Source of the DNA: a virus
Lineage: Duplodnaviria; Heunggongvirae; Uroviricota; Caudoviricetes
Virus record (IMG/VR): IMGVR_UViG_2529292921_000020
Length of the DNA stretch: 43,121 nucleotides
Direction: 5' to 3' (one strand)
In this document: positions 6,194 through 20,646 of the stretch, in pieces
Layout of the letters: the number at the start of each line of letters is the position of its first letter
Numbering within the stretch: position 1 is the first letter of the stretch
Made by a program: the position numbers and the translations under genes
Notes under the pieces: model-generated
Told to the model about the DNA's origin: nothing
Databases searched by the model: none
The model's input: only the letters and a program-made list of their open reading frames with translations

Positions 6194-6840
6194 TTATTTA
6201 ATAGCTCCCGTTCGTGTTTTCTCTTGTTAATGGCATCTTCAGTAAATACAGGGTTACTGATAGTGACACCAATTTCAAAACAACCTTCAGACGTATTAAC
6301 GTTTGGTAATAACGTTTCCATTATCGCGTCCTCAACAATGAATTTTGTGATGTGGTGCCTGGTGCCTCCAGGTGACGTTAACCAGTTAACAATTAACGCC
6401 GGATACAGAGAATCCACCCATAACACTGTTTTTGGTTTTAACTGTTCCGCGTGCGCTCAGCCGCATTCACCGCATCACAAAATTCACTTTAAAAACGGCG
6501 GCAGAGCAGTCACGGAGTAAAACTGATACCGCCAAACGTCACCAGAAAATTGATAACAGAGGGCGTTGCAGCGGGGTTGTCGCTTAAGCGTATGGTCAAC
6601 CTGACAACCCGGTGTCCTCAACGGGGAAGGAATAACCCCGCCATACTTACCGCCGCGCCATTTCGCGGAGTGCCACAACCGGAAGCGCACGGTCGAACTA
6701 AATTTAACGACACCGTACAGAGAGACCAATTTCGCCGTGCGCTTTCGCGTTATGCCCTGACTTTTCAGGGACATATCCTTTCAGTAAACTGTCAGTGCCG
6801 GATGTTCACCCGTGTCCGGCGCACGCACTCCACCTGACCC

Positions 6841-8749: not shown

Positions 8750-9158
8750 ACACATCCGCATGGCGATGAATGTCTGGGCGCATCCGGACGGCGAAAAAGT
8801 GCCGGCTGCGAAAATTACCAAAGCGTATTTCGAGCTGGGAATGACGTTCCCGGAACTGTATGACGACAGCCATCCGGAAGCCCTGGCCCGTAATACCCAG
8901 AAAATTTTCCGTTGGCTGGATAAAGACACCCCTGATGCTGTTGAAAAAATGCAGGCTCTGTTACCGGCGATCGAAAAGGCGATGCCGCCTTTGCTGGTGG
9001 CCCGTATGCGCAGCCACAGTTCTGAATATTACCGTGAGATCGTCGAACGGAGGGATCGGCTGGTGAAGGATGTCGATGATTTTGTTGCGTCAGCGGTTGT
9101 TTTGTATGACCAGATGAATCGCGGCGGCCCGGCAGGGAATGCTGTGGTGATGCACTAA
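8733..9158 (+). CDS. YdaT-like protein
   Basis: 141-aa ORF overlapping the Cro-like gene end; N-terminus MKIKHEHI... and size match my recollection of Rac YdaT. Confidence 0.5.
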   Translation: MKIKHEHIRMAMNVWAHPDGEKVPAAKITKAYFELGMTFPELYDDSHPEALARNTQKIFRWLDKDTPDAVEKMQALLPAIEKAMPPLLVARMRSHSSEYYREIVERRDRLVKDVDDFVASAVVLYDQMNRGGPAGNAVVMH

Positions 9159-9165
9159 AAGCACG

Positions 9166-10143
9166 GTGTTCGGGGGTTTTATGAGCAGCAAGCTTCATGG
9201 TCTTGTCTGGGAAGGGTGCGCCTTCACCGGCATGATCTTATCCAGGGTGGCGGTTATGGCCCGTCTTGCAGACTACAGCAATGACGAGGGCGTGTCATGG
9301 CCTGCCATTGAAACTATCCGGCGTCAGATCGGTGCAAGAAGTGAATCCACAGTGAAATCGGCTATTGCAGAACTGGCGAAAGAGGGCTGGCTGACGAAGG
9401 AAGAGCGTAAGGTCGGTGGGCGTAATGTAAGCAATATCTATCGGCTTAATGTGGAAAAACTCGAAGCAGCTGCGGCGGCGGCGCGTGAGTCATATAAACC
9501 GAAAAGAAAAATTAGCCCGGCAAAAAATGACCCGTTAACAGTTGACCCGTCAAATATTGACCCCTCAACGGTTGACCCGTCAAATTTTGATGGATCAACT
9601 GTTGATAAAAAACTGCCGATTAGGGGGGCGATGATTGACCCCGATCCGTCAGTATTAAAACCTGATCCGTCAGATAAAAGATCTTCTTGTCCGGACGCTT
9701 CGCAACCGGACCCGCAGACGGCTGAACAGGATTTTTTAACCCGACACCCTGACGCGGTTGTGTTCAGTGCGAAAAAACGCCAGTGGGGAAGTCAGGAAGA
9801 TTTGGTGTGCGCACAGTGGATCTGGGGACGAATCGTGAGTCTTTACGAGCAGGCGGCCAGCTATGATGGCGAGATCGCTAGACCGAAAGAACCCAACTGG
9901 ACAGCATGGGCCAATGACGTTCGCACAATGCGGATGCTGGATGGCAGAACTCACAGACAAATTTGTGAAATGTTTGGGCGTCTCCAGCGGGATTCGTTCT
10001 GGGTAAAAAACATCATGAGTCCGGCAAAACTCCGGGAAAAATGGGATGAACTGGTTATCCGCCTGGGGCGTTCGCCTGCGCAGCGTTGCGTGAATCACAT
10101 TTCTGAACCGGACACTGAAATTCCGCCGGGCTTCAGGGGGTAA
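9166..10143 (+). CDS. Phage replication initiation protein (winged-helix N-terminal domain) with internal origin iterons
   Basis: 325-aa ORF; N-terminal HTH-type segment (SWPAIETIRRQIGARSESTVKSAIAELAKEGWL); iterons inside the coding region as in lambda O. Confidence 0.65.
   Translation: MFGGFMSSKLHGLVWEGCAFTGMILSRVAVMARLADYSNDEGVSWPAIETIRRQIGARSESTVKSAIAELAKEGWLTKEERKVGGRNVSNIYRLNVEKLEAAAAAARESYKPKRKISPAKNDPLTVDPSNIDPSTVDPSNFDGSTVDKKLPIRGAMIDPDPSVLKPDPSDKRSSCPDASQPDPQTAEQDFLTRHPDAVVFSAKKRQWGSQEDLVCAQWIWGRIVSLYEQAASYDGEIARPKEPNWTAWANDVRTMRMLDGRTHRQICEMFGRLQRDSFWVKNIMSPAKLREKWDELVIRLGRSPAQRCVNHISEPDTEIPPGFRG
9525..9620 (+). repeat. Putative replication origin: four TGACCC(G/C) iterons at about 15-bp spacing plus the palindrome TCAACTGTTGA
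   Basis: aatGACCCGTtaacagtTGACCCGTcaaatatTGACCCCTcaacggtTGACCCGTcaaat; encodes a repetitive peptide (LTVDPSNIDPSTVDPSNFD). Confidence 0.6.
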
Positions 10144-10183
10144 GTGTTAATTTCTGGTCATGAGGTAATTTTCAGGAGGGCTT

Positions 10184-10606
10184 GTGGCAAAAGTTTTTAC
10201 ACAAGAAGAGCGGGAAAAAATTAAAGGGCAGGTTGTTGAACTCGTACGCCAGAGTGGGCGCGAGACGTTACGACAACTGGAAACTAAAACTGGGGCAACA
10301 AGATATCTGATGAGCGTTCTGGCCAGAGAGCTGGTTGCCAGTGGCGATGTATACAACTCTGGTTACGGGTTATTCCCGTCTGAACAGGCGCGTAAGGACT
10401 GGCAAAATGCCCGTAAAAAGCTCTCAAGGGCAAAGCTGAAGAAACCATCTGCGGTTGATCCGGACCTTATCTGGTCATTACCTGACGGAGAAATACGTCG
10501 CTACGACAGGCGTCAGAACATAATCTGTCGCGAGTGCCGGAAGAGCGAAGCTATGCAGCGCGTACTGGCGTTTTATCAGGGGAATTTTGAGGAGGTGGTG
10601 CGGTGA
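10184..10606 (+). CDS. Hypothetical early-region phage protein
   Basis: 140-aa ORF after the replication gene; no recognisable motif. Confidence 0.4.
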   Translation: MAKVFTQEEREKIKGQVVELVRQSGRETLRQLETKTGATRYLMSVLARELVASGDVYNSGYGLFPSEQARKDWQNARKKLSRAKLKKPSAVDPDLIWSLPDGEIRRYDRRQNIICRECRKSEAMQRVLAFYQGNFEEVVR

Positions 10607-10849
10607 GTGAATCAAAATGCCAGGTTAATGGCAACAAGATAGAACCATGTGCAGCACTGGCAAAGTCCCTTGAGCGTGATGCTGAATACACGATGCGAAA
10701 AGGTCTGCTGATATACAAAATCTGAAATGAGAGTTTAACTCGCGGTCCTGATTTTGTGATGTTGCGTTCCGGTGAATTTTCTAAATTACCAGTTCGGGTT
10801 TCATTTTGTCCGTTCTGTGGTGAAAGTCTGAAAACGTGGGAGAACAGAA

Positions 10850-11161
10850 ATGAATGAAATTAAAGAAATACCAGTAGTACGTGATGAATATGGCTGCTGG
10901 ACGCATCCTGAATATGAAAAATTCTGTGACGGTCGGGAATATATTTCAACGGAAGAGTTTAACGCCTGGATGGAGGAAAATAATCTTCAATACGTCCTCT
11001 GCTTCAGAGATGAAGGATGTGCTGACCTTGATGCGTGTGATGCTGATATTTCTGCATGGGAACCGGAACGACCAGAGGGCAATGGATGGTTTATTGGTTC
11101 AATACATGACACCGAAGATGGCCCGGTTTGTGTATGGCTGAGAAATAAGGTCGAAGCATAA
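10850..11161 (+). CDS. Strongly acidic small protein (hypothetical)
   Basis: 103-aa ORF; about 25 Asp/Glu versus about 9 Lys/Arg by hand count. Confidence 0.45.
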   Translation: MNEIKEIPVVRDEYGCWTHPEYEKFCDGREYISTEEFNAWMEENNLQYVLCFRDEGCADLDACDADISAWEPERPEGNGWFIGSIHDTEDGPVCVWLRNKVEA

Positions 11162-11281
11162 AGGCTATAAACCGACTAACAACTAAATACTGAAGATTTA
11201 AATCAGAAACGATTTTTATTAAATCCTTAACCGGAGGGATTCCTGCACCCTCAAATCATCAGGAGGCCGCCCGAAAGGGCG

Positions 11282-11788
11282 GTGGAGATAATAATGGGAA
11301 TAACTAAAGAACGATTGTTGGAAATAGCAAACCTTAGTGATTGGGCATTAAGTGATGAGAGAATTGTTTCTCCTCATGCTTATGAGTCAGTTACAAGTAT
11401 AGAAATAACAACAATGGCTAGAATGCTGCTTGGTTATTTCAAAATAGAAAATAAAAAACAGATGGATAGTAATGTTGATATATGTGAGATTTTAGACGAT
11501 TGGGGGGCTTGGGTTGTGGCTGGTAATAGTTCTATTGATTGGCAGGAAATAGCTGATAAATATAAAAATGTTGTTCCTCATGGTAAAAAATCACGTCGTC
11601 AGTGCAGCAATGATGAAGGGCGAATTATTGACATTAGTATCCTTAGGTTAGAAAGATATAAGCAACAAGAATATGAGTTAATTGTTGCTCATTTCGTGAT
11701 TGGTTTATCTCTTCGTGCTATTGCAAAGCAACAAGGATGTTCAGATGGAACAATTCGTAAAAGATTGCAAAAAGCCTTAGGTTTTTGA
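11282..11788 (+). CDS. Q-like antitermination-family protein (QuuD-type), AT-rich
   Basis: 168-aa ORF; motifs WGAW, SRRQCSNDE and C-terminal HTH CSDGTIRKRLQKA resemble my recollection of DLP12 QuuD; real start may be internal. Confidence 0.45.
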   Translation: MEIIMGITKERLLEIANLSDWALSDERIVSPHAYESVTSIEITTMARMLLGYFKIENKKQMDSNVDICEILDDWGAWVVAGNSSIDWQEIADKYKNVVPHGKKSRRQCSNDEGRIIDISILRLERYKQQEYELIVAHFVIGLSLRAIAKQQGCSDGTIRKRLQKALGF

Positions 11789-11817
11789 CTGGATATATAG
11801 CAATTACCAGTTAAGAG

Positions 11818-12450
11818 TCAGCGGTTTTTACCAGTGTAATGGTATAAGGATACTCCCATGTGTCTTACATGATATGGAAGCGCTGTTGCTGGATGCTTTG
11901 TGATACTCTTAAAGCGGAGGGGAGAGCCTTCCGCTTCAATTTCTGCGTCCGAAACGGTCGTAGAGAAAAATTCTTTCCATTCATTGAATTTTACTGCTGA
12001 TTTGTCAGACTTTATATAAATTAGAATTCCTCCATGATCGTCACGTGACGTACCCGTGCCGTAACGTTCGGTTAGCTGAATCCAGCCATTATGAATAGAT
12101 TTGGGGCCTCTCCATAATTTTGCTTCACCGATCCATTCGAATTTTCCGAATTGATGTTTAACTAATAAATCAACGTGACCGCCATGTTGAGTATCATGTT
12201 CAACATCATAAAACCTACCTTTCAGGAAATTTTTGATCGACGCTGTTAGCTCGTCCTCTCCCCACTTAGCATCTTGATAGAAGTGTTTGTCATTTTCTAA
12301 ATTCTGAATAGCGTCGTCTAAATCTTCATAGAGTTGCTTTACAAAAATATTTTTGTCTGCAGCTAATTTTCTTTGAACCATTCCCCTAAATTCAGGATCC
12401 ATTCTAATTAATGATTGAAGGTCTGCAGTACAGATGTTTACATCACTCAT
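11818..12450 (-). CDS. PD-(D/E)xK-type nuclease-like protein, third gene of a three-gene operon
   Basis: About 210 aa from MSDVNICTADL; core motif GGHVDLLVKHQFGKFEWIGEAKLW (D...ExK); start ATG overlaps the upstream stop (ATGAGTGA). Confidence 0.55.
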   Translation of the reverse strand: MSDVNICTADLQSLIRMDPEFRGMVQRKLAADKNIFVKQLYEDLDDAIQNLENDKHFYQDAKWGEDELTASIKNFLKGRFYDVEHDTQHGGHVDLLVKHQFGKFEWIGEAKLWRGPKSIHNGWIQLTERYGTGTSRDDHGGILIYIKSDKSAVKFNEWKEFFSTTVSDAEIEAEGSPLRFKSITKHPATALPYHVRHMGVSLYHYTGKNR

Positions 12451-12871
12451 GCAGACTCTCCAAAAGACTCGAAGGAGTAAAGTATGGATAAAGATACTGG
12501 CTAAAATTATCAACCAATTCGCCAGTTTCTGGATGGTAAAAACTTCCTGTGTCTAAAGCATAGGAAATAAGATCATCTTCAACTGGTATTGGTTCTTCCG
12601 TTAAATTATCAATGTATTGAAAATGCATATCCAATAGATGTGCTTTATAGCTAGATAAATAATCAGTTGCTTTTATTAGCAGGATATAGTCATCTTTCGT
12701 ATCAGTTAGATAGGTTAAACCATTGATAAGGGTTTTGTATGTAAAGTGATTGATATTTTTAGCATCTTTACTAACCAGAAAAAGAAAAAGATCACGACAC
12801 ACACTGCGAACAGGATCATTAAAATCCTGCTCTATTTGCGTGATAATGTCGTGATATATACTCTTTTTCAT
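12443..12871 (-). CDS. Hypothetical protein, middle gene of the three-gene operon
   Basis: 142-aa ORF, AT-rich; start overlaps the stop of the upstream gene (ATGA) and its stop overlaps the start of the nuclease gene. Confidence 0.5.
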   Translation of the reverse strand: MKKSIYHDIITQIEQDFNDPVRSVCRDLFLFLVSKDAKNINHFTYKTLINGLTYLTDTKDDYILLIKATDYLSSYKAHLLDMHFQYIDNLTEEPIPVEDDLISYALDTGSFYHPETGELVDNFSQYLYPYFTPSSLLESLHE

Positions 12872-13964
12872 TTATGGCCTGATGATCTCGCTCTTCTTTT
12901 CTCTTCACAGGACTTAACAGAATCCAATATTTTTTCAACAATAAATATAATCGAATCAATGTTGTTACAGTTCTTCGCAATTGCTTCATGCAACCTAATT
13001 CTAGGATTATCAAGCATTGTCCTTTTTCCTGGTAATATTAACTCTACTGATAAAATATGTGAAGAACTTTGTGGTAAATCCCAAATTTTTCCCAACTTAA
13101 ACTTTGTCAATATTGGGCTTGCGGACTCTCCACTATGATGGTAAACATCTTGACGCAAACACTTTTGACTTGGTTTGAGTTTTAAAGAACTTGTATTGCC
13201 ATCTGAGGTGATAAAAGATACATGAGAAATTCTGCCATCTACTTTTTCGTAAAGATCTTGTATTGAACCAAATAATTCAAGAGGATTGTTTAAAATAACG
13301 CCAGCTTCTTTTTTATAAATTTAGCCACAAGGTATTGTTGAGGCTGTGATTCACTTCTTGGAAGGATAGATAAATCAATCGTAAGAATTAATATTTTTTC
13401 TGCAGGCATTAGCATGATGGTATTAAAGCATTGCGTGACTTGGCGTGTTTTGCATTTTATTTCTCCACCATTAGCACGTAATTCCATACCCGCATCGCTA
13501 AGATGTGTTGGGTCAAGCTCTATCACTTCAGTGTAATACGCTTTGGATAAAAAAACAGCAGTGTCAATTTGTTTATCACGAATGATATCTTGACGTAGTT
13601 CAGCAAAATGCAGCTCAGTATCAGCAACTAACAGCTCCTCTCTGGATAAAGGAATTGGGTATTTTTCTGAGAAGGGGCTATTGTCCTTTTTCTGATTTGT
13701 GAAAATTGTTTGTAATTTTGCTACGTCTTCATCGGTGATTCTATAAATAGAAAGTAATCGATTCCCGCTAAAAATTAAACCTTTCCAGAAATCGTCGATT
13801 CTGTCTTTTAGGTCGGGATTATGCTGAACTACACTATTTACACGTTCAATAAAAAGGGGTAATCCTTGGGCCGTTACACCCAGTGATGAACCAAGAAGCT
13901 TACGGGTGTTGCGCCAGCCAAAGCGTGAATTGATGTTTTTTACTGTTTGCTCAAGCATTAACAC
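12868..13964 (-). pseudogene. First gene of the three-gene operon, split into two frames (13290-13964 and 12868-13320); about 360 aa if fused
   Basis: 224-aa ORF ends at a TAA at 13290-13292 while the downstream frame is open from 13320 to 12868 without a start codon; the frames overlap around a T6 run at 13309-13314. Confidence 0.45.
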
Positions 13965-14304
13965 TTCCTTAATTTTCCCTTAACAATTTAGGGTGCTAAA
14001 CTTTTTTGCGCAGTTTACATAAAAAAATAGTGCGTACGCAAAAACTATCTAACATGATGAGCTTTAACCGGGAAATTTGTATATGTTGTGAGCATAAAGT
14101 TGGCTGAGAAATCTAAAACGGGTAGAATGACTGCGGGTGCTTGAGGCTATCTGTCTCAGGCATGAACACCAAAAGGCAGATAGAGAAAAGCCCCAGTTAA
14201 CATTACGCGTCCGGCAAGACGCTTAACATTAATCTGAGGCCATATCTATGCTCTACACACGTAGGTTAGCCTCTTACGTGCCGAAAGGCAAGGAGAAGCA
14301 GGCT

Positions 14305-14460
14305 ATGAAGCAGCAAAAGGCGATGTTAATCGCCCTGATCGTCATCTGTTTAACCGTCATAATGACGGCACTGGTAACGAGGAAAGACCTCTGCGAGGTA
14401 CGAATCCGAACCGGCCAGACGGAGGTCGCTGTCTTCACAGCTTACGAACCTGAGGAGTAA
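14305..14460 (+). CDS. hokD: Hok/Gef-family type I toxin (HokD/RelF-like), with overlapping upstream mok-like frame from 14248
   Basis: MKQQKAMLIALIVICLTVIMTALVTRKDLCEVRIRTGQTEVAVFTAYEPEE, near-identical to my recollection of E. coli HokD; upstream leader has inverted repeats (CTATCTG / CAGATAG). Confidence 0.8.
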   Translation: MKQQKAMLIALIVICLTVIMTALVTRKDLCEVRIRTGQTEVAVFTAYEPEE

Positions 14461-14526
14461 GAGACCAGGCGGGGGAGAATCCCTCGCCACCTCTGATGTG
14501 TCAGGCATCCTCAACGCACCCGCACT

Positions 14527-14553
14527 TAACCCGCTTCGGCGGGTTTTGTTTTT
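14527..14553 (+). terminator. Rho-independent terminator downstream of hok
   Basis: CCCGC-TTCG-GCGGG stem-loop followed by TTTTGTTTTT. Confidence 0.6.
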
Positions 14554-14625
14554 CCTGGCATTCTGGTTTACAATTCGCACGCCAGCCTGAACAACTGGCA
14601 CCTGCTGCGCCAGCAGAGACAACCG

Positions 14626-14904
14626 ATGGCGCACGATACCAAATTACACAATTCTGATGATTCTGCCGTCTTTGCCAGCAGGCACGGGCGGCGTTCCCGC
14701 ACTTTCAAATCTGACTGGTTCCAGCATCCCCCATGCACTGAAGAACAGGCCGAGTGGCTAATTCAGTGCTACCGCAGACACGGATACGAGATTAAGAAAG
14801 CCCTCAGCCTCGATTATCGTCACTGGATAATCTCCGTCAGGCTTCCTTACTCCGAACGACCACCGCGTCCGTCCCGCACATTCCAGCAACGCATCTGGAG
14901 GTAA
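14626..14904 (+). CDS. Hypothetical small phage protein (rem position of Qin)
   Basis: 92-aa ORF immediately upstream of the DUF968 gene. Confidence 0.4.
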   Translation: MAHDTKLHNSDDSAVFASRHGRRSRTFKSDWFQHPPCTEEQAEWLIQCYRRHGYEIKKALSLDYRHWIISVRLPYSERPPRPSRTFQQRIWR

Positions 14905-14905
14905 C

Positions 14906-15955
14906 GTGCGGGTATTACTTCGACCTGTTCTGGTACCGGAACTCGGGCTGGTGATCGTTAAGCCGGGCCGTGAATCCATGCCGGTATTCCACAATACCCG
15001 GGTACTGGTGGAGCCGGAACCGAAAAGCATGCGTAATCTGCCGTCCGGGGTCGTTCCTGCCGTTCGCCAGCCGCTGGCGGAGGATAAATCATTACTGCCA
15101 TTTTTCAGCGACGAACGAGTGATTCGTGCTGCTGGTGGCGCTGGCGCATTGTCTGACTGGTTACTGCGCCATGTTAAATCCTGCCAGTGGCCACACGGTG
15201 ATTATCACCACAGTGAAACCGTCATTCACCGTTATGGTACCGGCGCAATGGTGTTGTGCTGGCACTGCGACAACCAGCTGCGCGACCAGACCTCCGAATC
15301 ACTCGGGCAACTTGCTCACCAAAACCTGTCAGCATGGATGATTGACGTCATACGCCATGCAATGAATGGCTCGCAGGAACGGGAATTATCGCTGGCTGAA
15401 TTATCCTGGTGGGCGGTCCGCAATCAGGTGGCGGACGCGCTACCGGAAGCGGTATTACGTCGTTCGCTGGGGTTGCGTGCGGAAAAAATCCGCTCAATGT
15501 ACCGTGAAAGCGACATCGTACCGGGAGAGCAGACCGCCACCAGCATACTGAAACAGCGCACAAAAAATCTTGCGCCGCTGCCTCACGCCCACCAGCAACA
15601 GAACCCACCACAGGAAAAGACGGTGGTCAGCATTGCCGTTGATCCTGAGTCTCCGGAATCTTTCATGAAACGACCTAAACGTCGCCGCTGGGTTAACGAG
15701 AAATACACACGCTGGGTGAAGACACAGCCGTGTGCGTGTTGTGGTAAGCCAGCCGACGATCCCCATCACCTGATTGGTCATGGTCAGGGCGGAATGGGGA
15801 CAAAATCTCACGATATTTTCACGCTACCGCTGTGTCGGGAGCATCACAACGAGCTTCATGCGGATCCGCTGACGTTCGAAGAAAAGCATGGTTCTCAGGT
15901 TGATTTAATTTTTCGTTTTCTTGATCACGCCTTTGCAACTGGCGTGCTTGGGTAA
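14906..15955 (+). CDS. DUF968-family phage protein (YdfU-like)
   Basis: 349-aa ORF; C-terminal Cys/His-rich motif CACCGKPADDPHHLIGHGQGG...CREHHNELH; position upstream of rusA and Q. Confidence 0.65.
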   Translation: MRVLLRPVLVPELGLVIVKPGRESMPVFHNTRVLVEPEPKSMRNLPSGVVPAVRQPLAEDKSLLPFFSDERVIRAAGGAGALSDWLLRHVKSCQWPHGDYHHSETVIHRYGTGAMVLCWHCDNQLRDQTSESLGQLAHQNLSAWMIDVIRHAMNGSQERELSLAELSWWAVRNQVADALPEAVLRRSLGLRAEKIRSMYRESDIVPGEQTATSILKQRTKNLAPLPHAHQQQNPPQEKTVVSIAVDPESPESFMKRPKRRRWVNEKYTRWVKTQPCACCGKPADDPHHLIGHGQGGMGTKSHDIFTLPLCREHHNELHADPLTFEEKHGSQVDLIFRFLDHAFATGVLG

Positions 15956-15967
15956 AAGAGGTGACTG

Positions 15968-16327
15968 ATGCTCATAGATTTGGTTTTACCTTACCCGCCG
16001 ACGGTGAACACTTACTGGCGACGCCGTGGCAGCACATATTTTGTATCAAAAGTCGGTGAGCGTTATCGCCGTGATGTGGCGCTTATTGTTCGCCAGCAGC
16101 AACTGAAATTAAACCTGTCCGGAAGGCCGGCAATAGAAATTATTGCAGAGCCACCGGATAAGCGCCGTCGTGACCTGGACAATATCCTGAAGGCACCACT
16201 GGATGTACTGACGCATGCGGGGCTGCTCATAGACGACGAGCAGTTTGATGAAATTAATATTGTGCGCGGTCAGCTTGTTCCTGGTGGGCGGTTGGGGATA
16301 AAAATCACAGAACTGGAGTATGCATGA
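15968..16327 (+). CDS. rusA: Holliday junction resolvase RusA
   Basis: 119-aa ORF; conserved RusA motifs (RRRDLDNILKA, LIDDEQ, GGRLGIKITE). Confidence 0.85.
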   Translation: MLIDLVLPYPPTVNTYWRRRGSTYFVSKVGERYRRDVALIVRQQQLKLNLSGRPAIEIIAEPPDKRRRDLDNILKAPLDVLTHAGLLIDDEQFDEINIVRGQLVPGGRLGIKITELEYA

Positions 16328-17013
16328 ATAACCAGTATTTACAGTTTGTTCGTGAGCAACTCATGATTGCCACCGCCGATTTGAGTGGATCAACAAAAGG
16401 GCAGCTTGAGGCCTGGCAGGAGAATGCCATGTTTGATACAGGGCGTTACAGGCGTAAAAAAATCCGGTACCGCGATGAAGTGACTGGAAAAATGATAACG
16501 CGGGATAATCCACCAATCCCGGGAAAGCAATCGCTGGCGAAGGGGGCGTCAATTCCTCTCGTCAGTCCGGTTGAGTTTTTGACATCATCGTGGCGGCGGG
16601 CTGTTCTGTCTCTTGAAGAACATCATAAAGCCTGGTTGTTGTGGTGTTACAGCGGGAGTATTTGTTGGGAATATCAGATCGCGATAACACAGTGGGCGTG
16701 GAATGAATTTAATACTCAATCCGGTACCAGAAAAATTGCTGGGAAAACGCAGGAACGCCTGAAAAAATTAATCTGGCTGGCGGCGCAGGCAGTAAAAGCA
16801 GAACTTTTTGGTGGGGAAGGTTATGAATATCAGGAGCTGGCATTACTGGCGGGAGTGACAACTAAAAACTGGTCCAAAACATTTACTCGTCACTGGGTTG
16901 CAATGAAACACATTTTTCACCGACTGGATAGTGAGGCTTTATTATTTGTAATGAGAACACGTTCAAAACAAAAGGCGGCATTTTCAAAGCAAAGTGTTGC
17001 AAAAGTAGATTGA
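16324..17013 (+). CDS. Late-gene antitermination protein Q-like
   Basis: 229-aa ORF directly after rusA and before the promoter, terminator and tRNA-lysis region, the canonical Q position; family assigned by synteny. Confidence 0.6.
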   Translation: MNNQYLQFVREQLMIATADLSGSTKGQLEAWQENAMFDTGRYRRKKIRYRDEVTGKMITRDNPPIPGKQSLAKGASIPLVSPVEFLTSSWRRAVLSLEEHHKAWLLWCYSGSICWEYQIAITQWAWNEFNTQSGTRKIAGKTQERLKKLIWLAAQAVKAELFGGEGYEYQELALLAGVTTKNWSKTFTRHWVAMKHIFHRLDSEALLFVMRTRSKQKAAFSKQSVAKVD

Positions 17014-17077
17014 AAGGCATATATTTCATGCAAATCTGATATTTTGCCGATTTTGTACGTGATGGCAAAATCAAACA

Positions 17078-17104
17078 AAACCCGCCCACAAGCGGGTTTT
17101 TTTG
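17078..17104 (+). terminator. Rho-independent terminator downstream of Q (tR'-like)
   Basis: AAAACCCGCCCACAAGCGGGTTTTTTTG: GC stem plus T7 run. Confidence 0.65.
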
Positions 17105-17170
17105 TGCCACTTATCTCGGATAGACATGGTGAATGCGCTGGTGGAGGAGATAAGGGTGATTTTTGTATGC

Positions 17171-17199
17171 TTGCAACATTGATTTCGTAACGTTATTAT
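17171..17199 (+). promoter_or_regulatory. Sigma-70-like promoter upstream of the tRNA cluster
   Basis: -35 TTGCAA (17171-17176), 17-bp spacer, -10 TATTAT (17194-17199), about 10 bp before tRNA 1. Confidence 0.55.
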
Positions 17200-17208
17200 C
17201 CTGCGCCC

Positions 17209-17284
17209 GGCCCTTTAGCTCAGTGGTGAGAGCGAGCGACTCATAATCGCCAGGTCGCTGGTTCAAATCCAGCAAGGGCCACCA
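17209..17284 (+). tRNA. tRNA with CAT anticodon (Met or lysidine-modified Ile2; ileZ-like position), CCA encoded
   Basis: Hand-folded cloverleaf: acceptor GGCCCTT / AAGGGCC, anticodon loop CTCATAA, T-loop TTCAAAT, 3' ACCA. Confidence 0.8.
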
Positions 17285-17285
17285 A

Positions 17286-17361
17286 CCGCCACTAGCCATC
17301 AGGAAAGAGCGTCAACCCTTTAAGTTGAGTGTGCGAGGTTCGAGTCCCCGGTGGTGGTCCA
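17286..17361 (+). tRNA. tRNA-like gene with atypical D-arm and anticodon loop (argN-like position); anticodon uncertain
   Basis: Acceptor CCGCCAC / GTGGTGG (one G-U), T-arm CGAGG-TTCGAGT-CCCCG, 3' TCCA; anticodon loop reads CCTTTAA with C at position 33. Confidence 0.5.
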
Positions 17362-17374
17362 TTATCGGTATTCT

Positions 17375-17448
17375 GCGTTGTTAGCTCAGCAGGACAGAGC
17401 AATTGCCTTCTAAGCAATCGGTCACTGGTTCGACTCCAGTACAACGCG
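17375..17448 (+). tRNA. tRNA-Arg (anticodon TCT, reads AGA); CCA not encoded
   Basis: Acceptor GCGTTGT / ACAACGC, D-arm AGCTCAGCAGGACAGAGC, anticodon loop CTTCTAA, T-loop TTCGACT. Confidence 0.8.
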
Positions 17449-17576
17449 CTACACTTATTTTCCCGGCTCGCTTTTGCGGGCCTTTTTTTTAAATGTCTCA
17501 CAATTCAGACGGTTGACAGTTGTCTGTTTTGCGGGGAGTTTGTTAAGTAAGCGACTCGTCAGAACCGTATTGATAT

Positions 17577-19148
17577 TTACTGAGAGCTCAGATCAACTTT
17601 CCAGGGCAACAGATCGCGTACCCGGTTTGCCGGCCAGTCCTGGATATGTTCAATGACGTAACGCAGCCACTTTTCTGGCTCCACATTGTTCAGACGGCAT
17701 GTGCCGATCAGCGAGTACAACACCGCCGCATGTTCACCACCGCTGTCGGAACCCGCGAACATCCAGTTTTTCCGGCCTACGGCCACTCCCCGTAAGGCGT
17801 TCTCTGCGATGTTGTTGTCGATTTCCACCCAGCCATTACTGCAGTACACGTTCAGTGCATCCCACTGTTTCAGCAGGTATGCGAACGCTTTTGCCGTATC
17901 TGAGTGACGCGACAGTGTTTTCATCTGTTGCTGTATCCAGTCATACAGTGACTGCATCAGTGGCGCGGCTCTGGCTTTTCTTGCCGCCAGACGCTGTTCT
18001 GCTGAACAGCACCGGACCTCTGCCTCGATGGCATACAGTTCACCGATACGCTGCAGGGCTTCCGTGGTGATGTAGGTGGGCGCTCTTGCATGCACATCGT
18101 GGATTTTTCTCCGGGCATGAGCCATACACGCGGCTTCCGTTATTCTGCCGGATTCGTATAACGCCCGGTAACCACCGTAAGCATCGGCCTGAAGCACACC
18201 GCTGTAACCGGCCAGGTGATTTTGTGGATGGATACCTTTCCGGTCCGGACTGTACGCGAACCAGACCGCCGGGGGCATCTGTGAACCGGCGTTACGGTCA
18301 TCACGGACGTAGACCCACAGCCGGGCTGTCCGGGTTTTACCGCTGCCCGGCTCCTGGACCGGGACGGGGATATCATCAGCATGGACTTTACCGGGCATCA
18401 GCACATACTGGCGCAGGACGTCATACAGCGGCTCCAGCAGTTCAGCAACAGCACCTGTCCAGCGCCCCAGTGTGGCACGGCTCAGCTCCACGCCCTGACG
18501 ACGGTATATTTCTGACTGGCGGTATAACGGCAGATGGTCTGCATATTTCCCGGTGACAACATGGGCCAGAAGCCCCGCTCCGGCATAACTGCGTGCAATG
18601 GGTTTTGAAGGTACTGGTGCCTGCACGATATGGTCGCACCGGCAACAGGCCTGTTTCGGACGTTGTGTTTCGATAACCTTAAAGGCGCTGCTGATAAGCT
18701 CCAGTTGCTCTGACACATCACATCCCAGAGAACTGAGTTCACCACCACAGGCAGGACAGCATTCCTCTTCCGGCCGGATAACCCGGGTTTCACGGGGAAG
18801 TGAGGCCGGTAACGGTTTACGGGCTGAAGACTGGCGCAGGGCGGATGGCAGTACCGGGTCATATTGCTCACCCAGCGTTTCCGCCATTTCTTCCTGAAGT
18901 GCGCTGATTCGCTCCTGTGCTTCCTGTATCTGCCGTTCGGTTTTTGCACGAAGTTTTTCTGAGCTTTTACCGAACTGCATACGTTGCAGTTTCGCAACCA
19001 GCGCCTTCAGCCGGTTGATTTCGGAAGCATAAGCCGCCACCCGCTGTGAGAGCAGGCGGTTGTATTCAGCCATCTGGCGGATGGTGTCCTGTTGCGTCTG
19101 CAACAGTGCCCGCAGGCGGGCGTTCTCATGAGCAAGTGAGGTGTCCAT
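17577..19148 (-). CDS. IS66-family transposase (TnpC)
   Basis: 523-aa ORF with N-terminal coiled coil, Cys-rich zinc-binding region and DDE core typical of IS66 transposases. Confidence 0.85.
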
Positions 19149-19167
19149 ATCCTCACTTTACAACGGG

Positions 19168-19515
19168 TTATATGCGGATTCCAGCGCGTTCCGTTCGTTT
19201 CGGGTGCTTCCAGTTGATACCTTCAAGAAGCATGGATAACTGAGCCGGAGTAAGGTGCACCTTGCCGTCACGGGTGACTGGCCAGACGAAGCGGCCCCGC
19301 TCCAGGCGTTTGGTGAAGAGGCACAGTCCGTCACTGTCAGCCCACAACACTTTTATCTGGTCACCCCGGCGTCCGCGGAAGATGAACAGGTGTCCGGAGA
19401 ACGGGTCATCCTTCAGGACGTTCTGAACTTTTGATGCCAGGCCGTTAAAGCCATTTCGCATATCGGTGATACCTGCAACCAGCCAGATACGCGAACCTGC
19501 AGGGAGAGATATCAT
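19168..19515 (-). CDS. IS66 accessory protein TnpB (Orf2)
   Basis: 115-aa ORF MISLPAGSRIWLVAGITDMRNGFNGL..., characteristic IS66 Orf2. Confidence 0.8.
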   Translation of the reverse strand: MISLPAGSRIWLVAGITDMRNGFNGLASKVQNVLKDDPFSGHLFIFRGRRGDQIKVLWADSDGLCLFTKRLERGRFVWPVTRDGKVHLTPAQLSMLLEGINWKHPKRTERAGIRI

Positions 19516-20192
19516 CAGTGGCTGCTCCCTTTTATTTCGCGGATAAGTGTCTGTAATAACGCCGGCGTCAGTTTACCTTTAAGCCTGAGAGTTCCGGCCG
19601 GCAGAACCAGCTCACAACACAGACTGTCGGACGGTGTATTTATCTGCTCTGGTTCCTGTGCGGGGGCCGGGATTTTATTATCCGGCTCCGGCGTTAACGT
19701 CACGGGAAGCAGTGCCGGCATATTTTTTCCGGAAGGCAGCAGGCCACCTTTCCGGTATTGATGGCGCCAGTTGAAGAGCAGGTTATCGTTGATTCCGTTT
19801 TCCCGGGCGATCTGCGCCACACAGGCTCCGGGCTGCAGTGACTGCTCCACTAAGGCGATTTTAAACTCATAAGGGAAGTTGGGCCGCCGGGGACGTTTTT
19901 TTACCACGGGGGCTTCGGATATAACGGTGCTTTCAGGACGTACGACTGGTACCGTGGAAAATTGTCCGTAAAGGCAGGCATCAAGTTCCTGCTCCGACAT
20001 GCCTGCGGGCAAAGGCCACGAAAGGCCAGCTCTCCGAAAGCGCACGAACATACTACAAACTGTTGATTTTGGTACACCCAGGCGACGCCCGGCCACAACC
20101 CGGGGTAAATGTTCTTCAAAGTGAAGACGTAAAGCTTCAGTGATCCAGGTCCGGTGTTTCATACGATAGTGTCCATTAAAAATGATGGACAT
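19515..20192 (-). CDS. IS66 accessory protein TnpA (Orf1)
   Basis: 225-aa ORF with N-terminal HTH, first gene of the IS66 operon, coupled to TnpB. Confidence 0.7.
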   Translation of the reverse strand: MSIIFNGHYRMKHRTWITEALRLHFEEHLPRVVAGRRLGVPKSTVCSMFVRFRRAGLSWPLPAGMSEQELDACLYGQFSTVPVVRPESTVISEAPVVKKRPRRPNFPYEFKIALVEQSLQPGACVAQIARENGINDNLLFNWRHQYRKGGLLPSGKNMPALLPVTLTPEPDNKIPAPAQEPEQINTPSDSLCCELVLPAGTLRLKGKLTPALLQTLIREIKGSSH

Positions 20193-20646
20193 TATTTTTG
20201 TAGAGCCGGAGGAAACAGACCAGACGGTTTAAATGAGCCGGTTACTTTGTTAAAAGAAACTGGCATGGTGAATCCCCCTGTGCGGAGGGGCAATCAGCGA
20301 GTAGGTATATGGGATAATCGCGGATTCAGGTGCTGGTACTGAATTCACCGGGAGGCACCCGGCACCATGCAATGGCACATAGCGCCACTCTCCAGCCCCT
20401 CTCCGGAGGGGCTTTCTTATGGACAAAAAAAGCCCGCGCAGGGAGACGCGGGCGGCAAGGAATAAACAACAAAACGTGAAGTAATATTTCAGCTGGCGAA
20501 TAATATCCGACAGTAATCACTCTGCGCAATAGCGCGGCCTTTTTCGTATTGCGGACTGTTGTCTCTCTTCTGCCATTGTCCTGTAACTTCCGGACTTCAG
20601 CCCGCTCCTCATTTTACTCACAATATTATCCCGGCCGGGAGGATTC

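Follow-up and report, generated by a model that had tools for sequence, protein, structure and literature searches.

The window analysed here, a 43,121-nucleotide stretch of tailed-phage DNA (Caudoviricetes), carries a small toxin gene, hok, on its plus strand (14305-14460), in a cassette of a lambdoid prophage, within the region that separates its replication genes from the Q antiterminator. The translation of this open reading frame, MKQQKAMLIALIVICLTVIMTALVTRKDLCEVRIRTGQTEVAVFTAYEPEE, is 51 amino acids long and its start is preceded by a GGAG Shine-Dalgarno (SD) sequence at 14292-14295. It belongs to the small Hok/Gef-family toxins (Pfam PF01848, HOK_GEF; 82.3 bits against a cut-off of 22, E=1.8e-23). 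An initial reading of the window made from its letters alone (hereafter the sequence-only reading) had proposed a 51-residue HokD-like toxin here, and the comparisons bear this out, the peptide sharing 98% of its residues with K-12 HokD and 100% with the HokD of E. coli E2348/69 (WP_012578894.1, so named in RefSeq). The hokD name rests on the RefSeq annotation of this identical protein, because the matches to NCBIfam Hok-family models fell below their cut-offs (e.g., 48 bits against a 73-bit cut-off for the Hok subfamily model NF007279). Relative to the K-12 and phage 933W proteins, the window peptide displays one substitution, V20M. At Tyr47, a TACG motif (14443-14446, plus strand), invariant in our alignment, constitutes a candidate TadA A-to-I editing site (Tyr->Cys). 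The surrounding TadA editing motif TACGAA (14443-14448) is unchanged in 44 of 44 aligned loci, with the window identical to K-12 at this point; editing of K-12 hokD from Tyr to Cys at the Tyr47 residue has been reported (PMC5630033).

Upstream of hok, an ATG at 14248 opens the mok reading frame (14248-14460, plus strand), which comprises 70 codons, lies in frame with hok, remains open to the hok stop and possesses its own SD sequence, GAGG (14236-14239), positioned 8 nt before the ATG, covered by the antisense RNA described below and invariant in 44 loci. The sequence-only reading had anticipated an overlapping mok-like frame upstream of the toxin; such a frame is present, albeit not as an overlap in a different frame, since it adds 19 in-frame codons to the N-terminal end of hok. 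At the same distance, exactly 19 codons before hok, an in-frame ATG recurs in 32 of 55 distinct loci, distributed among Escherichia, Citrobacter, Pseudocitrobacter, Kluyvera, Photorhabdus and Pantoea.

The mRNA that would encode both frames is bounded by recognizable signals. A sigma-70-like plus-strand promoter at 14100-14128 (-35 TTGGCT at 14100-14105, 17-nt spacer, -10 TAGAAT at 14123-14128; 9 of 12 matches in a promoter scan) ends 6 nt upstream of the first base of the Rfam model that matches the leader, and loci from several genera retain both the -10 box and its distance to GGGTGC. From the start of that model and from the folds, a full-length transcript of ~419 nt is predicted (14135-14553), running to the end of the T-run of an intrinsic terminator (14528-14553). 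The latter had already been noted from the letters and was recovered in a terminator scan as a hairpin at 14528-14545 (7-bp stem, loop TTCG) followed by TTTTGTTTTT; it is common to K-12 hokD. The Rfam match (RF01794, "sok") covers 14135-14310 on the plus strand and the full model (positions 1-157), with 117.1 bits against a gathering score of 59 (E=3.7e-26). The last position of this model falls at the hok AUG, so that what it represents is the sense-strand leader of the hok mRNA and not the antisense RNA; strand calls made from it should therefore not be taken as the strand of the antitoxin. Together with a z-score of -7.9 against shuffled sequences for the full-length mRNA fold (minimum free energy [MFE] of -169.6 kcal/mol), this match excludes a chance origin by a wide margin.

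Opposite the leader, mapping of the 933W sokW annotation onto the window places a candidate Sok antisense RNA of ~71 nt (14186-14256, minus strand; predicted start ~14256), with a 15-nt single-stranded 5' tail, a long hairpin and a U-run, spanning both the mok SD sequence (14236-14239) and the mok AUG. Its predicted fold is stable (-28.6 to -29.7 kcal/mol, z=-4.7), and the hairpin is stronger on the Sok strand than on the sense strand (-23.3 versus -13.9; a gain of 9.4 kcal/mol) because G-U pairs in Sok become A-C mismatches in the mRNA. Such a strand-specific gain, as predicted by folding, is characteristic of a structured antisense RNA. In most relatives the loop following the mok AUG, which is the target loop of Sok, displays a pyrimidine-U-N-purine motif; in the window it reads CUCU. 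This motif speeds Sok binding in R1. Antisense recognition might thus be slower for the window allele, as its loop is devoid of the motif.

The sequence-only reading had suggested that the antisense strand be searched for a Sok promoter, and one is present there (14263-14291, minus strand; -35 TTGCCT at 14291->14286, 17-nt spacer, -10 TAACCT at 14268->14263), read from the sequence and identical to the sokW promoter of 933W. A consensus promoter scan called no minus-strand promoter at the cassette, since the -10 box TAACCT matches the consensus at only 3 of 6 positions. We rejected this miss as proof of an absent promoter, the same -10 box having been validated by mutation: Takada et al. (2021) inactivated sokW in prophage Sp5 via this element (AGGTTA->CGGCTC on the plus strand, primer YO-421), which unmasked HokW toxicity, with partial relief from sokW supplied in trans (PMC8621323). 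At the level of sequence, the locus would therefore encode a cis-antisense Sok with its own promoter and terminator, complementary to the mok initiation region. Decay of the cassette, whether through loss of the mok frame or through absence of an antisense promoter, is not seen here, as the frame is intact and the promoter is present.

The leader and 3' end contain the full set of folding elements on the plus strand. At the 5' end, the translational activator element (tac; GGGUGCUUGAGG, 14135-14146) is followed by a stem-loop (14147-14183), the inner stem of which pairs CUAUCUGUCU (14147-14156) with AGGCAGAUAG (14174-14183) in both our folds and the Rfam structure. Within this stem lie the leader repeats CTATCTG and CAGATAG of the sequence-only reading; these are real, albeit at 14147-14153 and 14177-14183, i.e., 65-100 nt upstream of the position (14248) from which that reading had the cassette begin. 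Further along are ucb, an anti-SD box (AAGCCCCAG, 14188-14196), and the downstream complementary box dcb (GCCUC, 14269-14273, mapped from the Rfam structure), which overlaps the spacer of the Sok promoter. Past the hok stop, a GC-rich 9-bp hairpin found by folding and conserved across loci (14468-14488) is presumed to be the stem-loop protecting the 3' end of the processed, truncated mRNA, by analogy with the R1 model (PMC9841398), and is followed by the fold-back inhibitory element (fbi; CCUCAA-C-GCACCC, 14509-14521).

These elements can pair in three mutually exclusive ways around tac, and all three pairings are present in the window. In the full-length RNA, both the MFE and the centroid structure adopt a closed form, in which tac is locked to fbi over a long range by 12 bp (14135-14146 with 14509-14521) and ucb is paired with the mok SD region (14190-14196 with 14234-14240). 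In the leader alone or in 3'-truncated RNA, tac instead folds onto 14153-14163 as a metastable hairpin. In the open form, obtained by mapping the Rfam consensus structure, tac pairs with ucb (14135-14142 with 14188-14194) and the SD with dcb (14236-14240 with 14269-14273). Both tac (metastable partner or ucb) and the mok SD (ucb or dcb) thus have alternative partners. Folding of 14135-14503 as a 3'-truncated mRNA returned the metastable 5' hairpin and not the tac/ucb stem. Single-sequence energy minimization alone therefore fails to give the published open form, which rests here on the Rfam consensus and on conservation.

For that conservation, 66 Hok loci were fetched from other genomes, and the 44 with recognizable leaders (from Escherichia, Kluyvera, Citrobacter, Pseudocitrobacter, Photorhabdus and Pantoea) were aligned. 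The closed form is paired in 92.9% of alignment cells (36-50% when the partners are slid) and the metastable hairpin in 96.9%, with 0 of 500 shuffles reaching the covariation score in either case. The inner stem of the 5' stem-loop is 93.4% paired over the 44 loci, with three pairs changed on both sides. Compensatory changes are seen at ucb/SD (AU:30/GC:11 and GC:19/AU:10). The fourth base of tac, U in the loci from Escherichia and Kluyvera but C in those from Photorhabdus and Pantoea, covaries with both of its partners, i.e., with fbi (UA:30/CG:12) and with the metastable partner (UA:30/CG:13). Such changes in regulatory pairings argue for purifying selection on the folding pathway as a whole. 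The open-form helices (tac/ucb, 100% paired; SD/dcb, 98.6% paired) are invariant, making the shuffle test uninformative; conservation of this kind fits the model without putting it to the test.

We therefore read 14100-14553 as a complete hok/mok/sok type I toxin-antitoxin module of the hokD/hokW lineage in a lambdoid prophage, with a probability of roughly 0.88. Its sequence elements, their complementarities, conservation and covariation, and the identity of its Sok promoter with an experimentally tested one are plain to observe. The sequence-only reading is upheld in its substance, since every element predicted for a complete type I toxin cassette is present, and needs correction in its interval, its repeat positions and the nature of the mok overlap. 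Its interval, 14248-14553, is too short: the unit starts at the promoter (14100-14128), with the mRNA +1 at ~14135, so that the first 115 nt of the transcript were omitted, and the promoter, tac, the metastable hairpin, ucb, the mok SD and most of Sok all fall outside. The conserved module, as delimited by homology with most other records, extends from ~14122 (the -10 box) to ~14531 (just past fbi).

In the R1 model, tac is kept in a metastable hairpin during transcription, the full-length mRNA is closed by tac/fbi with the mok SD held by ucb, and 3' trimming leads to the tac/ucb stem and SD/dcb pairing that permit translation and Sok binding (PMC9841398). By analogy, a constitutive promoter would supply a stable mRNA of ~419 nt, the 5' tac of which would be held in the metastable hairpin while nascent. 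Once the transcript is finished, tac and the 3' fbi would pair and ucb would sequester the mok ribosome-binding site, allowing neither translation nor Sok binding. Slow 3' trimming would then remove fbi, letting tac switch to ucb and the mok ribosome-binding site enter a hairpin with dcb that would be both translatable and the target of Sok. The short-lived, 71-nt Sok from the opposite strand would pair across the mok start, blocking mok translation and, since translation of hok is coupled to that of mok, hok as well, with the duplex being destroyed. Should Sok synthesis stop, be it because the prophage is induced, the element lost or transcription shut off, ribosomes would translate the accumulated processed mRNA, and the 51-aa Hok would insert into the inner membrane to kill or lyse the cell. 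Transcription, 3' processing, RNase III cleavage, toxicity and biological role of the window cassette would in this scheme follow R1 and Sp5; Hok killing, Sok neutralization and activation by 3' processing have been shown for R1 and in part for hokW-sokW (PMC9841398, PMC8621323).

As for what such a module would do, RecA-dependent induction of Sp5 leads to the disappearance of sokW and the appearance of HokW, and deletion of hokW-sokW delays growth arrest by ~40 min and halves phage release (PMC8621323). The window cassette would thus most likely aid lysis and phage release on induction, as does hokW-sokW, and/or prophage retention; a part in prophage retention or in phage exclusion is possible.

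A cassette intact in sequence could still be physiologically silent, a passenger of the prophage that is transcribed and perhaps processed but releases too little Hok to matter for killing or lysis. Consistent with this, the chromosomal hokA, hokB and hokC loci gave neither post-segregational killing nor a response to rifampicin, as summarized in a recent preprint (bioRxiv 10.1101/2025.08.07.668861), the Sp5 effect is modest in size (twofold in phage release, 40 min in growth arrest), and the window target loop is without the pyrimidine-U-N-purine motif of most relatives. We nonetheless consider silence unlikely: all of the regulatory pairings are conserved with compensatory changes, as expected under purifying selection on the folding pathway; the hokW-sokW system, 93% identical in nucleotide sequence and with an identical Sok promoter, works, with HokW made on induction; and in tests of 45 diverse Hok peptides, 42 proved toxic.

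Alternatively, the module might mainly defend its host against other phages by abortive infection, as opposed to serving its own prophage's lysis or maintenance. In support, R1 hok/sok on a high-copy plasmid lowered T4 plating, according to work that cites this result, and the cassette adjoins an uncharacterized, AT-rich cluster of accessory genes, in a prophage slot that varies in content. This reading is more doubtful still, as hok genes show no enrichment in the vicinity of defence systems (bioRxiv 10.1101/2025.08.07.668861), the neighbouring genes yield no significant PADLOC or Pfam match, and the effect measured for the nearest relative is on its own phage release. Specifically, searches with the three upstream neighbour proteins and a 92-aa downstream open reading frame returned nothing significant from PADLOC or Pfam, so that we set aside the neighbours as a known defence system.

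The setting of the module is that of a lambdoid prophage throughout. The window contains DicF RNA; downstream of hok come DUF968, RusA and Q genes; tRNA genes, an IS66-family element and STnc100 are also present, with lysis and head genes further on. The DUF968 homologue is 85% identical to K-12 ydfU and precedes Q, as in the Qin prophage of K-12. The sequence-only reading had noted that no relBE genes accompany the toxin, and tblastn agrees, finding neither relE, relB nor rem anywhere in the window, by which a relBE pair hidden elsewhere in it is also rejected; the 92-aa downstream open reading frame has no homology to K-12 rem. That reading had also placed another gene set in the adjacent slot, correctly: the position that holds relBE in Qin is occupied here by an uncharacterized, AT-rich, minus-strand cluster of three genes (11818-13964), for which the present cassette provides context.

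With the 471-nt stretch 14090-14560 as query, a cassette match was obtained in 4939 of 5426 complete E. coli genomes, and in 3895 of these 5426 the match covers at least 80% of the query and so includes the leader. Matching places per genome number 2 at the median and 9 at most, and related cassettes annotated as hokD or as hokW/mokW/sokW are 93-99.8% identical. Enrichment of hok genes in prophages is well established. The module is thus a known, widespread and already annotated system.

Across 11 closely related hokD-type cassettes, sequence divergence is concentrated at one place. Mean pairwise difference peaks at 0.38 over 14243-14266, i.e., the Sok 5' tail and the start of mok; the flanks stay at or below 0.09, and most of the hok coding region at 0.00-0.09. 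It is possible, though less likely than not, that this peak reflects diversifying selection, by which each co-resident prophage copy would have a private antitoxin, so that a cell losing or inducing one prophage could not rely on the Sok of a second. Alternatively, an unpaired loop and a dispensable Mok N-terminus may simply be under relaxed constraint.

Comparison with known systems places the complete hok/mok/sok module within its family. The paradigm, R1 hok/sok (parB), shares the same elements (tac, fbi, ucb, dcb, mok and Sok) and the same three-state folding logic (PMC9841398). It differs in being plasmid-borne, with a proven role in post-segregational killing, and it is so dissimilar to the window in nucleotide sequence that blastn aligns no more than short pieces of the leader.

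Considerably closer is hokW/mokW/sokW of 933W and Sakai Sp5 (AF125520.1, 58460-58734), 93% identical over 410 nt, which like the window has mok, hok and a 71-nt antisense RNA in the same layout. The 933W record annotates mokW, hokW and "SokW antisense RNA", with experiments published in 2021 that establish hokW-sokW as a type I toxin-antitoxin pair (PMC8621323). In alignment, the two loci are identical from 14259 to the hok ATG, a stretch that runs from the Sok -10 box through the hok start, whereas several substitutions separate them in the Sok 5' tail and mok start region. HokW is 90% identical to window Hok, with a different C-terminus (VDYESEK against TAYEPEE), and 44% identical to R1 Hok. 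The 3' end of the 933W locus differs after fbi, its terminator is not shared with the window, and the locus lies elsewhere in the phage genome, near the right end by L0136-L0142, as opposed to upstream of Q.

K-12 Qin hokD (relF), located downstream of relBE, encodes a Hok 98% identical to that of the window and has an identical 3' untranslated region, fbi and terminator included, followed by the same downstream DUF968 (ydfU) and Q context. That the window might hold a like orphan, i.e., a decayed toxin frame without mok, Sok or 5' regulatory elements, is suggested by this Hok identity and these neighbours but has next to nothing left in its favour, given that the window keeps 170 nt of leader with promoter, tac, ucb, mok and the Sok gene, matches the leader model over its full length and is without relE and relB. 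The alignment with the Qin region, a comparison proposed in the sequence-only reading, refutes such decay: K-12 homology begins only ~16 nt before the hok ATG, with relE in the leader's place and abutting the hok ribosome-binding site, so that Qin is without the promoter, tac, ucb, the mok start and the whole Sok gene. In the window the leader is whole, and relBE does not lie directly upstream in its stead. K-12 also has rem downstream, in contrast to the window. The window allele is the intact, ancestor-like form of the truncated K-12 hokD.

The full leader is common to the window, 933W and the prophage hokD locus of E. coli O127:H6 E2348/69 (NC_011601.1, 1439610-1440081), the last of which is 99.8% identical over the 471-nt query. 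This prophage has the same neighbours on both sides, with window positions 9094-17546 being 99.88% identical; the window differs from it by a frameshift in the upstream 363-aa gene and by a different insertion sequence downstream of the tRNAs. In RefSeq, the hok coding sequence ("type I toxin-antitoxin system toxin HokD") is the sole feature annotated at the E2348/69 locus; mok, Sok and the RNA elements are left unmarked. The mok frame, Sok RNA and RNA elements detailed herein would thus complete the hok-only picture at this identical locus.

The Rfam model RF01794 carries the name "sok antitoxin", but in the type I toxin-antitoxin cassette its match (14135-14310) lies on the sense strand of hok and stops at the hok AUG; the strand of a hit is therefore that of the toxin mRNA leader and not that of the antitoxin. 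Within the coding region, the hexamer TACGAA at Hok Tyr47 (14443-14448) shows no variation across the 44 loci of the alignment, which represent five genera, and this extends to the synonymous third codon position. Such invariance fits a conserved TadA A-to-I editing site recoding Tyr to Cys. Divergence among the otherwise near-identical hokD-type cassettes is concentrated at 14243-14266, i.e., in the 5' tail of the antisense RNA Sok and the start of mok, the in-frame upstream extension of hok. A pyrimidine-U-N-purine motif follows the mok AUG in most relatives, but not in the window allele.

Among the Hok loci fetched from other genomes, two complete cassettes lie in tandem, approximately 560-630 bp apart, in an Enterobacteriaceae isolate and in Photorhabdus temperata (locus L036, 938-1084 and 1501-1647; locus L046, 1501-1647 and 2131-2265), and one Photorhabdus copy lacks 12 nt in the part of hok that encodes the C-terminus. 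Near-identical hokD was also encountered in four loci (L013, L021, L032, and L068) labelled as a Veillonella parvula metagenome-assembled genome (MAG), Acinetobacter idrijaensis, Xanthomonas pisi, and a Candidatus Scatousia MAG. The carrying contig is shorter than 3 kb in three of these and 22.9 kb in Veillonella; contamination or mis-binned E. coli DNA, as opposed to true hosts, is the most likely source of all four.

Downstream of the cassette, ARAGORN predicted three tRNA genes at 17209-17449 (anticodons CAT, TTT, and TCT), of which Rfam recovered only the first and third at gathering threshold; the RefSeq annotation of the identical locus in E. coli O127:H6 E2348/69 lists two tRNAs, Ile and Arg, and the middle candidate (17286-17361) is doubtful. 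Homology to E2348/69 stops at 17546. Directly after the tRNA genes, an IS66-family element on the minus strand (17577-20192) encodes a transposase, an IS66 Orf2-like protein, and a helix-turn-helix protein, whereas E2348/69 has the IS4-like ISEc13 at this point. Two small RNAs were also detected in the prophage, namely the DicF antisense RNA (6496-6547, minus strand, 72.5 bits) and STnc100 (20234-20424, plus strand, 137 bits).

Two different Q-family antiterminator genes, both on the plus strand, belong to PF06530 (11282-11788) and PF06323 (16324-17013), respectively; between them lie the hok cassette and an AT-rich cluster, an arrangement that suggests a mosaic join. The cluster comprises three co-oriented minus-strand genes (11818-13964) with a G+C content of 32-40%, versus 48-57% for hok and the genes downstream. 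In E2348/69 the encoded proteins, of 363, 142, and 197 aa, are annotated as hypothetical; a Pfam search gave no match for any of the three, and PADLOC returned a single marginal match, PDC-S54 (E=0.0014), for the 197-aa protein. The single 363-aa frame of E2348/69 is represented in the window by two (224 aa and 96 aa; 12868-13964, minus strand), split by a frameshift in a poly-A run encoding lysine that follows ...VAKFIKK; the shift could be a genuine mutation, the effect of a tract prone to slippage, or an error in the sequencing.

The sequence-only reading had placed a three-gene cluster in the slot otherwise held by relBE, and comparison with the cryptic Qin prophage of K-12 bears this out: where Qin carries relBE, the window carries the AT-rich block at 11818-13964.
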